A DNA stretch of 64,000 nt from the NCBI GenBank assembly GCA_050998755.1, contig JBPCPW010000013.1:5668-69667 (forward strand), read 5' to 3'. How positions within the stretch are numbered: position 1 is the first letter of the stretch; each line of letters opens with the position of its first letter. Made by a program: the position numbers and the translations under genes. The notes under the pieces are model-generated. The model saw only the letters and a program-made list of their open reading frames with translations. It ran no database searches and was not told where the DNA came from. The stretch comes from Candidatus Dormibacteria bacterium. GTDB lineage: Bacteria > Chloroflexota > Dormibacteria > DASZGP01. Positions 12,338 to 23,325 of this stretch are shown here, piece by piece.

Positions 12338-12357
12338 CGCGACACCTTCTTGTCGCG
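12338..12357. promoter_or_regulatory. Inverted repeat CGCGACA-ccttct-TGTCGCG, 37 bp upstream of the HD-fusion gene. Candidate operator.
   Basis: Perfect 7-bp arms with a 6-nt spacer. It is one member of a motif family that recurs at six intergenic sites. Confidence 0.6.
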
Positions 12358-12393
12358 TCGCGCACACCGAGACGGACGGTCAATAATGCAGCC

Positions 12394-13821
12394 GTGCAAT
12401 TCATCGCGATCGACTGGTCGGGCAACGCCTCCAACGCGGCGCGGTTCACCGCAGTGGCTGTCGTGCGCGAGGGCGCCCTGGTCAGCGTGGAGACAGGGCG
12501 CACCGGGCGGGAGCTGGCCGACCATATCCGGGACCTGGCCGCCGCAGACTCCCAGACCGTGGTCGGTCTAGACTTCGCGTTCTCGGTACCCGCGTGGTAT
12601 CTCCGGTACAGGAACTTCGCCAACGTTGAGGAGCTCTGGCGCGCCGCCCGCAGCGAGGGCGAGAGTTGGGTGAAGGGCGAGTCGCCGTTCTGGGGGCGCC
12701 CGGGCGTGAAGCGCCCGGACCTCGAGCATCACTTCCGGGCGACTGACCGGGCGGTGCCTTCGGTCGGTGGGATCTCGCCGAAGTCGGTCTTCCAGGTGGG
12801 CGGCGCGGGAGCGGTGGGGACCGGGTCTGTCAGGGGTTGGCCTTTCCTGTTCGATCTCCTGGAGCGCGGCTTCCGCATCTGGCCGTTCGAGGATGGATGG
12901 CCCCTGGTCATCGAGATCTACCCGCTTATCCTCACCGGACCGGTCATCAAATCGAGCGCTGCGGGCCGTCGAGCTTACCTGGAGGACCCGCGCTGGCAGC
13001 TGCCCGACCGAATGATCGGGATGGCGGCGGCATCTGAGGACACATTCGACGCGGCCGTCTCGGCGCTGGTGATGGCGCAGCACGCGGAAGAACTGATCTC
13101 GCTCAAGGCCACAACCGACCCGCAGACCATGCTCGAAGGCGCAATCTGGTTCCCGCCGTCAGCGTCCGTCGAGCCCCTGCATCCATGCCTTCCCGAGGGG
13201 CCGTTGCTGACGGATCGCTTCGAAGACGCACTGACATTAGCGGCCAGGGTCCACCGGACGCAGGTGCGGAAGGGCAGCAACCTTCCGTATGTCGGCCATC
13301 TGCTCGGCGTCGCGTCTATCGTGCTCGAGGAGGGCGGAGACGAAGACCAGGCGGTCGCGGCGTTGCTCCACGACGCCGTCGAGGACCAGGGCGGTCTGCC
13401 GATGCTCGACGAGATCCGGGGGCGGTTCGGGCCGCGGGTGGCGGGCATTGTTGAGGGCTGTACCGACGCGGTGACCAATCCCAAGCCGCCCTGGCGGAAG
13501 CGCAAGGAGGACTACCTCGAGCACCTGTCTCTAGCGCTGCCCGAAGTCTTGCTGGTATCGCTGGCCGACAAGCTCTTCAATGCACGCTCGATCCTCCTGG
13601 ACTACCGCCGGGTCGGCGACGCGGTGTGGGAGCGCTTCCACGCGGGTCGCGACGACCAAGTCTGGTACTACCGGCAGTTGGCCGACATCTTCATGAGCAG
13701 CGGCGACCTCGTGCCCCACGTGCTGGCGAGCGAGCTGGACCGGGTGGTCACCGAGATCGAACGCCTGCCCGCGGGCCGTGCTGGAACCGGGTCGGTTGAG
13801 CACCGTCGCGACCCCGTGTGA
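12394..13821 (+). CDS. Two-domain protein: an N-terminal ~280-aa domain of unknown function (begins IAIDWSG; possibly an RNase-H-like fold, DUF429-like) fused to a C-terminal SpoT/RelA-type HD hydrolase domain (small-alarmone-hydrolase-like).
   Basis: The C-terminus HLLGVASIVLEEGGDEDQAVAALLHDAVEDQGGLPMLDEIRGRFGPRVAGIVEGCTDA...LVSLADKLFNARSIL matches the (p)ppGpp-hydrolase HD pattern (H...HD..ED...KLADRLhN). GTG start at 12394. Confidence 0.7.
   Translation: MQFIAIDWSGNASNAARFTAVAVVREGALVSVETGRTGRELADHIRDLAAADSQTVVGLDFAFSVPAWYLRYRNFANVEELWRAARSEGESWVKGESPFWGRPGVKRPDLEHHFRATDRAVPSVGGISPKSVFQVGGAGAVGTGSVRGWPFLFDLLERGFRIWPFEDGWPLVIEIYPLILTGPVIKSSAAGRRAYLEDPRWQLPDRMIGMAAASEDTFDAAVSALVMAQHAEELISLKATTDPQTMLEGAIWFPPSASVEPLHPCLPEGPLLTDRFEDALTLAARVHRTQVRKGSNLPYVGHLLGVASIVLEEGGDEDQAVAALLHDAVEDQGGLPMLDEIRGRFGPRVAGIVEGCTDAVTNPKPPWRKRKEDYLEHLSLALPEVLLVSLADKLFNARSILLDYRRVGDAVWERFHAGRDDQVWYYRQLADIFMSSGDLVPHVLASELDRVVTEIERLPAGRAGTGSVEHRRDPV
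13751..13818. repeat. Direct repeat copy A (~68 bp; the first 29 bp are identical to copy B at 15619-15686).
   Basis: ccgagatcgaacgcctgcccgcgggccgt is shared exactly, followed by ~40 bp of roughly 70% identity ending in ..cgcgaccccgt. It encodes the C-terminal tail (EIERLPAGRAGTG...) of the HD-fusion protein. Confidence 0.75.
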
Positions 13822-13838
13822 CACACGAAGTCCCGCAT

Positions 13839-14813
13839 TCACGTGCTCGCCGTCCTCCGCTCGATCACTTCCACCGACCGCTCTAGCCTCTGCTGAAGCG
13901 ATCCACGAATTACCTGAAACTTCCGGCCGATCCGGCTCAACTCGGCGATGAACCTCCCGTGCATCCACTCCCGGAGATGCTCGCCGTCACGGTAGCCGTC
14001 CTGCACGAACGGGATGTCCACGTCGGTGAGCAGGTATAGGTCGTACCGCCGCGAATCCGCGATCGCCTGGACCGCCCGAGACGGGTAACCGAGATAGCGC
14101 TCGTGCCAGATCGCCGTGGCTAGGGCGTCGGTGTCGCACAACAGGATTCGGTTCGCGTCGCGCGCCGAGGCGTCCTCGCGCCGGCACTGCTCACGGGCGA
14201 CCATCTCGAACTCCTCGCTCTCCCACTTCGCATCGATCCCTTTGACCTGTTCGGTGTACTCGCGCCCGTACTCCGGGACCCAGGTTGTCCGAAAATGCGC
14301 CGCGAGCGCGCGGGCGAGCGTTGTCGTCCCGGTCGATTCCGCGCCGACGATGCAGACCCGGCGGACGAAATGCGCGCGCACGCAGGGCTCGAGGTGGTCC
14401 CATTGACCCAGCGGGTCGGCGCGCACAGCCGTCCCGGAGCACGGTACCTGGAGACGCGCCCGGTCGACCTCGACGTGCGCGGCACCCAGCAGCTCCGCGA
14501 AGCGGGCTCCATACGCCTCTGAGGTGAACACCGCGTCAGGCGCGTAGCCCAGCCACTGCCGGGTCAGACGTGCCCAGAGCTCGGAATCGTCATCTGGGTA
14601 GATGTCGTCGATCAGCCGGATATCAGCAGTTGGGTGGATCTCGCGCATCCAGGCAGCGCGCAACTCGCCAGGGATGTCGTGCTCCGTGCGGTGGCAGACG
14701 AAAACGGTGAGATGCTCGACCTGGGCCAGGGCCGTGTCGATGACCAGCTTGTGCCCGCGGTGCGGCGGGTAGAACTTGCCGAAGACGACCCCGGTCCTAA
14801 ACGGCGACGGCAT
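13839..14813 (-). CDS. nadR: NadR-type bifunctional NMN adenylyltransferase / ribosylnicotinamide kinase. No HTH domain. Start probably at the internal Met, MPSPFRTGVVFGKF.
   Basis: Nucleotidyltransferase motif GKFYPPHRGH (HxGH). P-loop-like IVGAESTGTTT in the C-terminal kinase domain. Adjacent to pnuC. Confidence 0.75.
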   Translation of the reverse strand: MPSPFRTGVVFGKFYPPHRGHKLVIDTALAQVEHLTVFVCHRTEHDIPGELRAAWMREIHPTADIRLIDDIYPDDDSELWARLTRQWLGYAPDAVFTSEAYGARFAELLGAAHVEVDRARLQVPCSGTAVRADPLGQWDHLEPCVRAHFVRRVCIVGAESTGTTTLARALAAHFRTTWVPEYGREYTEQVKGIDAKWESEEFEMVAREQCRREDASARDANRILLCDTDALATAIWHERYLGYPSRAVQAIADSRRYDLYLLTDVDIPFVQDGYRDGEHLREWMHGRFIAELSRIGRKFQVIRGSLQQRLERSVEVIERRTAST

Positions 14814-22217: not shown

Positions 22218-22239
22218 CTGCGACATGAACCTGTCGCAG
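22218..22239. promoter_or_regulatory. Inverted repeat CTGCGACA-tgaacc-TGTCGCAG between the 102-aa and 341-aa genes, with an extra GCGACA immediately 5'.
   Basis: 8-bp perfect arms with a 6-nt spacer. Confidence 0.55.
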
Positions 22240-22260
22240 GCATGACCCACCGTCGGTGTC

Positions 22261-23286
22261 ATGAATGAGAAGAGCAGCAACCCACAGGATCCCAAGAGCC
22301 CGACCATCGCACTCAAGGAGCGCATCCGCCTGGACGGCCCCGCCGGTCTCACCGTCGGTCGCGGCCGCAGCATCGGCGCCCTCACCCTGGTGCCCGTCTT
22401 CCACGAGGGGCCGGCCGCCGACTACATCCCCTACGCGTCCATCCAGGGTAGCGGCCTGCTGGAAATCAGCGAGGTCACCGGCGGCGGCCAGGTCAACACC
22501 CTGGTCGCGGAGAACCGCGCGGACCAGGCGGTCCTACTGCTGGAGGGCGAAATGCTCGAAGGCATGCAGCAGACGCGCGTGCTCAACGTCACCGTCCTGG
22601 TGCCCGCGAAGACCACGCTGAACATCCCGGTGTCCTGCGTGGAGGCGGGCCGCTGGCACCACGACGGCGTGGCCGCCTCCAAGCACGAGTTCCATATGTC
22701 ACCGCGGGCGCGCTCGCGCAAGACGATTACCGTCAACGAGCAGGCCCGCGGCGTTGGCTCGTACGCCTCCAACCAGGGCGAGGTGTGGGCCAGCGTGGAT
22801 GATGAGCTCGCCGCGCACCAGGTAGCGGCGCCGACGCGGGCGCAGTCGGAGATCGGCAGGGCCCGCGGCGCGGAGGTCAGGCGAGACCTGGACCAACTCG
22901 AGCCGCGGCCGGGGCAGGCCGGCGTCGTCGCGGTGGTCGGTGGCACGCCGCTCTGCTTCGACCTGTTCGACCGTCCGTCCACGCTCGAGGTGGTCTGGAA
23001 GGGGCTCGTCGGCAGCTACGCGCTGGATGCGATGACCGTGCCCAAGCGAGCCGCTGCCGAACGAGACACAACGGAGGCCCGCCGTTGGCTGAGCGGCATG
23101 ACCGAAGCGATGGCGACCGAGCATCCCGGCGTGGGCATTGGCACCAACGTGCTCTTGAGCTCCGCGGGCGTCGGGGCCACGTCGCTGGTCATCGACGACG
23201 CGGTAGTCCACCTGGCAGCTTTCATGGCGACCGAGACCATCGGTTTCGCACGCCCCAGCCGCCGCGGCGGGACGCAACTTATCTAG
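22261..23286 (+). CDS. Conserved hypothetical protein (341 aa). Resembles an uncharacterised family I recall from conflict-system contexts (ARPP-1/DUF-like); not verified.
   Basis: Block GLLEISEVTGGGQVNTLVAENRADQAVLLLEGEMLEGMQQTRVLNVTVLVPAKTTL. Flanked by two copies of the palindrome motif. Confidence 0.45.
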   Translation: MNEKSSNPQDPKSPTIALKERIRLDGPAGLTVGRGRSIGALTLVPVFHEGPAADYIPYASIQGSGLLEISEVTGGGQVNTLVAENRADQAVLLLEGEMLEGMQQTRVLNVTVLVPAKTTLNIPVSCVEAGRWHHDGVAASKHEFHMSPRARSRKTITVNEQARGVGSYASNQGEVWASVDDELAAHQVAAPTRAQSEIGRARGAEVRRDLDQLEPRPGQAGVVAVVGGTPLCFDLFDRPSTLEVVWKGLVGSYALDAMTVPKRAAAERDTTEARRWLSGMTEAMATEHPGVGIGTNVLLSSAGVGATSLVIDDAVVHLAAFMATETIGFARPSRRGGTQLI

Positions 23287-23301
23287 CCGTCGGAGTGCGG
23301 G

Positions 23302-23325
23302 CCCGCGACAACCATCTGTCGCGGG
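23302..23325. terminator. GC-rich hairpin CCCGCGACA-accatc-TGTCGCGGG, 16 nt after the 341-aa gene stop. A terminator-like stem that is also a member of the GCGACA-N6-TGTCGC motif family.
   Basis: 9-bp perfect stem with a 6-nt loop. No U-tract, which is common in high-GC Gram-positives. Confidence 0.45.

Follow-up and report, generated by a model that had tools for sequence, protein, structure and literature searches.

Six copies of a palindromic element, GCGACA-N(5-8)-TGTCGC, occur in a 64-kb stretch of contig JBPCPW010000013.1 from a Candidatus Dormibacteria bacterium, an uncultured soil organism (assembly GCA_050998755.1). We call this whole stretch of 64,000 nucleotides (nt) the window and the palindromes the boxes. 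They lie among genes for ADP-ribose-processing proteins and for a transcription factor with a helix-turn-helix (HTH), a WYL and a WCX domain. Read from the sequence, the palindromes are promoter elements and not repetitive extragenic palindromic (REP) elements or terminators. Their best explanation, which we hold to be probable, is that the adjacent HTH-WYL-WCX protein would bind the boxes as a homodimer and act as an activator, with the boxes as integral parts of the promoters.

In the proposed mechanism, a box would cover about -24 to -41, in place of the -35 element, and a weak -10 hexamer would stand 10 nt further on. By analogy with the WYL proteins DriD and PafBC, the effector-bound WYL domain would let the regulator help the housekeeping RNA polymerase to use promoters which are otherwise poor. 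The likeliest effector would be single-stranded DNA (ssDNA) arising from DNA damage or phage attack. The regulon would comprise ARPP-1, the TY-chaperone paralogs with a histone deacetylase (HDAC)-like gene, a small membrane protein, DUF429/HD proteins, the regulator itself and a pair of genes which we label X and Y. In relatives, it would also take in a phosphatase-glycohydrolase operon.

The boxes as promoter elements

The six palindromes are found where the initial annotation, made from the letters alone, had placed them, and an exact-pattern search bears out its statement that the window holds no further full copy. By chance, 0.06 copies are expected on average, and none of 100 dinucleotide-preserving shuffles reached six. 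The spacer measures 7 nt at site 4 (20789) and 6 nt at the other five exact sites. The G+C content is 62-70% throughout the window. When two mismatches are allowed, 12 copies are counted against 7.6 expected, which is near chance, and lone half-sites are frequent (44 and 35 copies).

Each of the six exact sites is followed, on one strand, by 10 nt and then by a [G/C]ANNNT hexamer (Table 1). The background frequency of this hexamer per position and strand is 0.022 (0.026 for the looser NANNNT). Related loci, numbered from L001, were collected with the WYL protein in genome contigs, from the contigs of WYL homologs and by alignment of ARPP-1 in metagenome contigs. Palindromes with at most one mismatch were then counted in 12 non-redundant loci, namely the window and 11 related Dormibacteria loci. 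A NANNNT hexamer stands at offset 10 in 29 of these 33 palindromes, against 0-4 at each other offset from 4 to 16. Among the 32 oriented promoters of the 12 loci, 21 have the start codon exactly 6 nt after the hexamer, whose first base is G in 21, C in 9 and A in 2. Within the window, the start codon follows the hexamer by 6-9 nt at five sites (12316, 18642, 19992, 22261 and 23348). No sigma-70 consensus promoter was found between positions 11000 and 24500, and no -35-like hexamer accompanies the boxes. The flanking c and g that the initial annotation had included in the motif are also correct: across 32 sites of related loci, C stands at position -1 in 24 and G at position +1 in 23.

Since the start codon usually lies 6 nt after the hexamer, most box-driven transcripts would be leaderless and begin at the start codon itself. 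Outside the regulon, few genes of the window have a -10-like hexamer 6-7 nt before their start codon (12382-12394; 35494; 56792), so that leaderless starts seem particular to the box-driven genes within the window. The leaderless candidates among these other genes are too few to yield a general -10 consensus.

Palindromes of this kind could instead act through RNA or DNA structure, as G+C-rich hairpins which serve as terminators, insulators, mRNA-stabilising or REP-like elements and share their core by common descent. Such a role would suit the position of sites 2, 3, 5 and 6, which are 14-30 nt past a same-strand stop codon (at the first three, just past that of the preceding gene). If transcribed, the copies would form structures of -13 to -25 kcal/mol, and the flanks lengthen the arms to 9-11 bp at three window sites. 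However, stable folding is expected of any G+C-rich palindrome, no box has a T-run terminator, and an Rfam scan of 10-27 kb at E<=1 gave no match. Of 33 variant pair positions in the arms, pairing is lost at 23 and reduced to G-T at 9, and a single one is still complementary. Because almost all of these variants are uncompensated, the box appears to be conserved as a sequence and not as a hairpin. Furthermore, the arm extension is absent in relatives, where it averages 0.76 bp, and boxes 1 and 4 as well as two related boxes (L056 8719, L065 2631) lie between divergent genes. A hairpin would also leave both the exact 10-nt distance to the hexamer and the distance to the start codon unexplained. 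We therefore regard a structural role as the sole explanation as extremely unlikely; the REP-like repeat that the initial annotation had named as an alternative fits neither the variants nor the confinement of the copies to the module, with none in the remaining ~50 kb.

The arms themselves differ in length. As first described, they are longest at 20784-20812, with up to 11 bp; at this site, at 20011-20036 and at 23302-23325, pairing continues 3-5 bp past the conserved core, which results in arms of 9-11 bp. The site-6 ortholog of the closest relative, L001 (6941-6968), also has 10-bp arms. For the long-armed boxes of the window, a second role as transcript-end hairpin is possible.

The spacers show regularities of their own. 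Those of 7 nt (20789-20807 and boxes in L056, L060, L062 and L065) have nCCnAGn in common, with a palindromic centre, for example acctagc or cctagga. Of the 22 spacers of 6 nt, 17 have A as their fourth base when read along the direction of transcription. As has been described for DriD boxes, the spacers exceed the genome in A/T content.

Additional half-sites and degenerate copies were also considered. The extra half-site reported after site 4, GCGACAGT (20816-20823), is present, but it includes the -10-like hexamer GACAGT. Single GCGACA half-sites adjoin box 5 (22212-22217) and box 4 (20766-20771); they have no -10 geometry, and none is seen at the matching place in L001. A one-mismatch copy at 62952 was discounted as it lacks promoter geometry. 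Two isolated half-sites had been listed elsewhere in the window: that near 46111 lies within a gene, has no -10 geometry and was likewise set aside, but that near 5741 belongs to a degenerate box at 5720-5737 which does have promoter geometry.

The proposed regulator and its characterised relatives

By its domains and its modelled fold, the window protein is a HTH-WYL-WCX transcription factor. Pfam reports WYL (3e-13), WCX (7e-19) and HTH_11 (1e-4, below the cut-off), and the AlphaFold2 (AF2) model, with a pLDDT of 88.6, comprises an HTH, a three-helix bundle and beta-rich WYL and WCX domains. The initial annotation had proposed a single dimeric regulator with a local regulon, which fits the evidence, and had named the WYL protein as its best candidate, which also stands. 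Its assignment to the BrxR/CapW type does not. In a phmmer search of the PDB (E<=0.01), only DriD (4e-15) and PafBC (1e-8) were matched, and Foldseek placed the AF2 model nearest to DriD (4e-18) and PafBC (2e-13), before BrxR (2e-9) and CapW (4e-8). The regulator is probably a DriD/PafBC-type activator rather than a BrxR/CapW-type repressor. The window protein is 100% identical to one encoded in a Candidatus Dormibacteria genome bin, and some sources name its homologs 'proteasome accessory factor B'.

The recognition helix reads K47-R48-T49-S50-L51-R52-D53 and is identical across the aligned Dormibacteria orthologs except for S50, which is A or I in others. Among 34 homologs with identities as low as 33%, R48 and R52 never vary. 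They align with the guanine-reading R37 and R41 of DriD and are spaced like R46 and R50 of PafB. In the effector-binding part, 8 of the 11 residues by which DriD contacts ssDNA are kept or conservatively replaced: Y168, R178, R189, Y192, R204, W206, R207 and Y240 of DriD correspond to Y168, R178, R193, Y196, R208, F210, K211 and W244 of the window protein.

DriD of Caulobacter crescentus, which as a homodimer activates a DNA damage response independent of SOS, is the best match in both sequence and fold. It recognises ATACGAC-N7-GTCGTAT, where R37 and R41 contact the guanines of CGAC (PMC10853764). Its promoters read CTGTCGC-AATGCGCGGA-CAATCT; according to the cryo-electron microscopy study, the box lies over the place of the absent -35 element and keeps a fixed distance to the -10 element, and the '-35 optimised' oligonucleotide of the authors confirmed CAATCT as the -10 element (PMC13004042). 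Its likeness to what is proposed for the window lies in a homodimer on a CGAC/GTCG palindrome read by two arginines, a proximal half-site 10 nt from the -10 element (TGTCGC-N10-CAATCT), a missing -35, an A/T-enriched spacer and regulation of the own gene. In contrast, E40 of DriD, which reads C1, is a leucine here, and the sequence identity is only ~24%. The DriD regulon comprises didA, recA, recJ, bapE and dnaG, whereas the boxes of the window serve ADP-ribose-processing genes whose transcripts mostly look leaderless.

PafBC of mycobacteria and other Actinobacteria, an activator of the WYL family triggered by ssDNA, works by sigma adaptation at RecA-NDp promoters: its motif in vivo is tGTCgg(N10)tA(N3)T, the PafB HTH lies at -23 to -28 without a -35 element, and R46 and R50 read GTC (PMC8635444). 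The GTC element at -23 to -28, the 10-nt gap to the -10 element and the missing -35 are all shared with the boxes. PafBC differs in being a heterodimer or fused chain which places one HTH on a single half-site, whereas the site here is a full palindrome and for this reason points to a homodimer. In addition, PafBC promoters have a canonical TANNNT as -10 element, whereas the first base here is G or C, and the sequence match is weaker (1e-8).

Two further WYL activators on palindromes were set beside the window protein by their descriptions. DdaA of Moraxellaceae binds CGWCA-N5-TGWCG and activates damage-response and anti-phage genes (PMC12392091). SiwR of Mycobacterium smegmatis is a homodimeric activator on a 19-bp imperfect palindrome between the -35 and -10 elements of neighbouring genes (PMC10693628). 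Their spacing and their regulons differ from those of the window. With DriD, PafBC, DdaA and SiwR alike, the boxes have the half-site and the promoter-proximal geometry in common; CGAC/GTCG is the half-site that recurs in DriD and DdaA. BrxR and CapW share the HTH-WYL-WCX family, palindromic sites near their own genes and a defence context. However, their matches to the window protein are weaker (12-17% identity), they are shorter, and no BREX or CBASS component is found among the Pfam and PADLOC matches.

From the sequence comparisons, we consider it highly probable that the WYL protein binds the boxes. A different factor, such as another HTH protein or an alternative sigma factor, could bind them in its place, with the WYL gene as a mere target. 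The way in which the loci were collected would favour this idea, as the co-occurrence of boxes and WYL genes is partly built into the set. Yet half-site and distance to the -10 element match three characterised WYL activators, the guanine-reading arginines are invariant, and the loci retrieved by ARPP-1 also have a WYL gene beside their boxes. The other nearby DNA-binding proteins, VapB and MazE, differ between loci. Binding by a different factor is thus very unlikely in our estimate.

Provided that the WYL protein binds, activation appears likely on the promoter anatomy, because the boxes sit at a fixed -24 to -41 as is typical of DriD/PafBC activator-dependent promoters. The same protein might nevertheless repress from the same boxes and be released by an ADP-ribose-derived ligand or by ssDNA. 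If the promoter were active by itself, a box over -24 to -41 would keep RNA polymerase out. The WYL repressors BrxR and CapW, which control defence operons, give detectable fold matches, and the module shares its defence island with an Mrr-like endonuclease and a type IV restriction enzyme. However, there is little to repress, because the promoters have no -35 element and only weak -10 hexamers. In 29 of 33 cases the box keeps its place to the exact base pair, a trait of promoters which depend on activators such as PafBC and DriD and not of repressor operators. Furthermore, the protein is nearer to DriD and PafBC and has the three-helix bundle which BrxR and CapW, judged by their length, lack. 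Repression is therefore the unlikely option, although better placed than either a structural role or a different factor. As for the signal, we would put ssDNA at slightly below an even chance, by analogy with the two closest relatives.

Several observations weigh against activation of these boxes by the WYL protein, or loosen the analogies on which this reading draws. Three window boxes (3, 4 and 6) have arms of 9-11 bp, longer than a protein site needs. At most sites the spacing is CGAC-N8-GTCG (N9 where the spacer has 7 nt), as opposed to CGAC-N7-GTCG in DriD, and the half-sites are 1-2 bp further apart than those of DdaA. The -10-like hexamers never begin with T, so that their identity as -10 elements is itself inferred. 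Three of the ssDNA-contact residues of DriD are changed (S172K, R176T and R288V). Most loci were retrieved with the WYL query and only L065-L067 with ARPP-1, so that the co-occurrence of box and regulator arises partly by construction. Lastly, a comparative-genomic survey of ADP-ribosylglycohydrolase-containing 'ARG-centric' systems predicted their WYL factors to be negative regulators which sense ADP-ribose, and described no cis-element (Iyer, Burroughs, Anantharaman, Aravind 2022, Viruses 14:1977; PMC9503650).

Putative target genes and their conservation

Genes were called by codon-position G+C and annotated with Pfam and PADLOC. Table 1 lists the boxes, their targets and the neighbouring genes.

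Table 1. Boxes, putative target genes and neighbouring genes of the window
Feature	Position	Strand	Evidence or geometry
UvrD-like helicase gene, extends off window	1-2539	-	tblastn with the L056 helicase-nuclease pair
PD-(D/E)XK nuclease gene, AddB/AdnA-like, 1038 aa	2539-5655	-	Pfam PDDEXK_1 6e-36
Degenerate seventh box (probable)	5720-5737	-	GCGACActaagcTGTCTG, GCGACA-N6-TGTCTG, 2 mismatches; 10 nt; hexamer CAACTT 5709-5704
Type IV methyl-directed restriction enzyme, 1034 aa	5875-8979	+	PLD + helicase + DUF3427; PADLOC mREase_IV 3e-274
Mrr-like endonuclease	9015-9983	-	Pfam/PADLOC annotation
Unassigned open reading frames (ORFs)	10017-12316	-	include 10017-11279 and 11304-12023, without family match
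Box 1 minus-strand target, frame-switching ORFs	11304-12316	-	frame plot, three-frame translation, L065 comparison
Box 1, N6	12339-12356	-	10 nt, CAGCCT (12328-12323), 6 nt, ATG 12316
DUF429 (weak) + HD_4 fusion gene, 475 aa	12394-13821	+	Pfam; target in relatives, link to box 1 uncertain
NadR-like gene (nicotinamide mononucleotide (NMN) adenylyltransferase + kinase)	13839-14909	-	Pfam
PnuC gene (NMN transporter)	14797-15516	-	Pfam
PTP-SAK phosphatase gene	15664-16194	+	Pfam PTP-SAK 7e-22
ADP-ribosylglycohydrolase gene	ORF 16044-17099	+	Pfam ADP_ribosyl_GH 1.5e-65; overlaps phosphatase gene
HDAC-like gene after par1	ORF 17096-18247	-	Pfam; true start probably near 18000
par1, TY-chaperone-like paralog	18642-18001	-	pairwise BLASTP; behind box 2
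Box 2, N6	18665-18682	-	10 nt, GACACT (18654-18649), 6 nt, GTG 18642
par2	19312-18710	-	Pfam TY-Chap3; pairwise BLASTP: paralog of par1
par3	19992-19309	-	Pfam TY-Chap3; pairwise BLASTP: paralog of par1
Box 3, N6	20015-20032	-	10 nt, CAGGCT (20004-19999), 6 nt, ATG 19992
vapBC	20062-20708	-	between box 3 and box 4
Box 4, N7, 11-bp arms	20789-20807	+	10 nt, GACAGT (20818-20823)
HTH-WYL-WCX regulator gene, 330 aa	20872-21864	+	Pfam WYL, WCX
Small PF17648 ('Luciferase' domain) gene, 102 aa	21898-22206	+	Pfam; no box upstream
Box 5, N6	22220-22237	+	10 nt, CACCGT (22248-22253), 7 nt, ATG 22261
ARPP-1 gene, 341 aa, PF20208	22261-23286	+	Pfam 1e-76
Box 6, N6	23305-23322	+	10 nt, GATGCT (23333-23338), 9 nt, ATG 23348
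Putative X-Y operon remnant, 70-aa ORF	23348-23560	+	X-like N-terminus; C-terminal Y motif DHQCLADTIELANVT; tblastn, sequence comparison
MazE-like + GNAT genes	23568-24233	-	after X-Y remnant
amt-glnB	from 24278	+	

Box 1 had been assigned to the HD-fusion gene. In the window, its canonical geometry points only towards the minus-strand ORF at 12316: on the plus strand, no hexamer is found at +10 (CCGAGA), and GTG 12394 of the HD-fusion gene is preceded, at 6 nt, by a separate AATAAT. At its start, the minus-strand target is a small membrane-protein ORF (MLNTRL...) with 62-aa orthologs in L056 and L065, and the frame of ATG 12316 is coding. Further on, the coding signal shifts frame twice, to a zinc-ribbon motif (CPNCGAP...CIYCGAP) and then to the 239-aa ORF 11304-12023. 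The region is either a frameshifted or decaying gene, or several small genes, or it contains assembly indels. In relatives, the HD fusion is a target. The box-1 orthologs L056 8719 and L065 2631 have a 7-nt spacer, are bidirectional and serve a DUF429(-HD) gene and the 62-aa membrane protein. The HD-fusion ortholog of L065 is 72% identical; a GATAAT hexamer precedes it, separated from the box by 10 nt. Orthology was taken from L065, since a pairwise comparison of the DUF429 part of the HD-fusion protein with the DUF429 protein of L056 gave no match.

Box 4 precedes the regulator gene with an inferred transcription start at ~20830 and a ~40-nt leader with the Shine-Dalgarno sequence GGGAGGG. 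The PF17648 gene behind the regulator is probably co-transcribed with it. Box 6 had been taken to lie merely downstream of the 341-aa gene, but it has its own hexamer and an ORF remnant behind it. This 70-aa ORF has an atypical codon-position G+C. Judged by sequence comparison, it is a deletion remnant which joins the start of X to the end of Y, and box 6 is the promoter of its operon.

The degenerate seventh box is probably the regulon box of a nuclease-helicase operon, because clear boxes precede AddB-like genes in L056 and L065. Its geometry and its intergenic position also support it, whereas a two-mismatch copy alone would be near chance. Transcription would start at ~5696, and GTG 5655 would follow a leader of ~41 nt which contains the Shine-Dalgarno sequence GGAGGG. 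The AddAB-like nuclease-helicase therefore probably belongs to the regulon.

The initial annotation had counted the phosphatase and the ADP-ribosylglycohydrolase among the controlled genes. In the window, these two genes have no box, as is also true of the NadR-like and PnuC genes, and in L001 the ~65 nt read before the phosphatase-glycohydrolase operon contain none either. Membership of this operon holds in other relatives: the PTP-SAK/glycohydrolase pair is common to L058, L060 and L063 and is preceded by a box in each (at 1596, 7752 and 1915, respectively; in L063 the operon is headed by HD_4).

The closest loci are all from Dormibacteria, and in these relatives, with WYL proteins 47-88% identical, the box recurs with the same genes. 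ARPP-1 starts 22-23 nt after the box wherever the upstream sequence is readable (window, L001, L058, L060, L063, L065 and L067). Boxes precede TY-Chap3/YbjN genes in L056, L060, L065 and L067; the L060 TY-Chap3 gene has the arrangement of box 3, and the par1-like genes of L067 and L061 that of box 2. In L062 and L064, boxes stand before an RNase H-like superfamily 1 helicase. The conserved pair X (~150 aa) and Y (~110 aa), which matches no Pfam family, is accompanied by boxes in L056, L060, L062 and L063. Orthologs of box 6 are found after ARPP-1 or before the X-Y operon (L063 7935, L060 13448, L056 12156 and L062 5652). In the more distant L002, L003 and L064, Y alone directly follows the WYL gene, behind a box. 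No recA, uvrA or lexA gene is present in the window and the related-locus sequences.

In more distant relatives, whose WYL proteins are 47-48% identical, the box reads GCGACA-N6-TGTCC[C/A] with unchanged geometry. Homologs of 30-37% identity from Chloroflexi and others (L004-L055) have neither box nor neighbourhood in common with the window. An apparent conserved box in L009 and L013 was dropped as it lies inside a GAF-domain coding region.

A related element was observed in metagenome contigs of ~70% G+C (L068-L078). There, TGTCGC-N10-TAACTT, ~55 nt before an ATG, precedes an ARPP homolog of ~30% identity and an ADP-ribosylglycohydrolase gene, in the manner of a PafBC-type promoter with a single half-site. 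These contigs count as one observation, since they are closely related to one another. From this element, WYL-activated wiring of ARPP systems may extend beyond Dormibacteria.

Genomic setting and significance

The module borders on defence functions. The interval 5875-9983, with the restriction enzyme and the Mrr-like gene, is a small defence island of lower G+C (62-64%), and in related loci GmrSD, McrBC or methyltransferase genes adjoin the module. Toxin-antitoxin cassettes interleave with it: vapBC and MazE-like genes in the window and six PIN-antitoxin pairs beside the module in L060 (12095-20028). The NadR-like and PnuC genes lie inside the module without a box, and the related loci examined did not show them beside it; their role may be to supply NAD outside the control of the regulon. 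Among the genes of 10-26 kb, no ADP-ribosyltransferase or sirtuin Pfam domain was detected; the ORFs 10017-11279 and 11304-12023 and par1 have no family match.

The view of the region as a stress or defence module is supported. Its gene set had been called unusual, but it is precedented: Iyer et al. (2022) described it as the ARG-centric system, with an ARPP-WYL pair, TY-chaperones and phosphatases (PMC9503650). The window shares with these systems an ADP-ribosylglycohydrolase, a phosphatase of the rhodanese-phosphatase superfamily, an alarmone-type HD phosphatase, TY-Chap3, ARPP and a WYL factor, as well as nearby nucleases and helicases and a mosaic make-up. ARG-centric systems were described from actinobacteria, planctomycetes and proteobacteria (PMC9503650), whereas the present locus comes from Dormibacteria and has many single promoters, each with an activator-style box. 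Our literature search found no paper which links ARG-centric systems to a palindrome box or to Dormibacterota.

A broader reading can be put forward only tentatively. ARG-centric ARPP systems might be part of an ssDNA-triggered, WYL-activated response by which ADP-ribosylated or otherwise damaged DNA is repaired or tolerated, alongside AddAB-like enzymes, instead of ADP-ribose-sensing repressor systems; we rate this as rather doubtful. Some published observations would fit an ssDNA-triggered damage response. A cysteine is conserved in ARPP, and the HIRAN domain, which binds 3' ends of DNA, is encoded beside some ARPP genes (PMC9503650). In Mycobacterium tuberculosis, depletion of darG is reported to interact genetically with pafBC.

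The finding is real: the class of WYL-activator promoters is known, and its ADP-ribose-processing target set in an uncultured phylum is new. It supplies a cis-element for ARG-centric systems, which had so far been a prediction from comparative genomics. The position of the box suggests an activator switch of the DriD/PafBC type, which contradicts the published repressor guess. Furthermore, the promoter design GTCG-N10-(-10) of WYL activators is extended to Dormibacterota. As the design also occurs in Alphaproteobacteria, Actinobacteria and Moraxellaceae, it seems to be an ancient and widely distributed way to make promoters inducible by damage or phage. For Dormibacteria bins, the succession of box, 10 nt, hexamer, 6 nt and start codon offers a rule by which gene starts and regulon members may be recognised.

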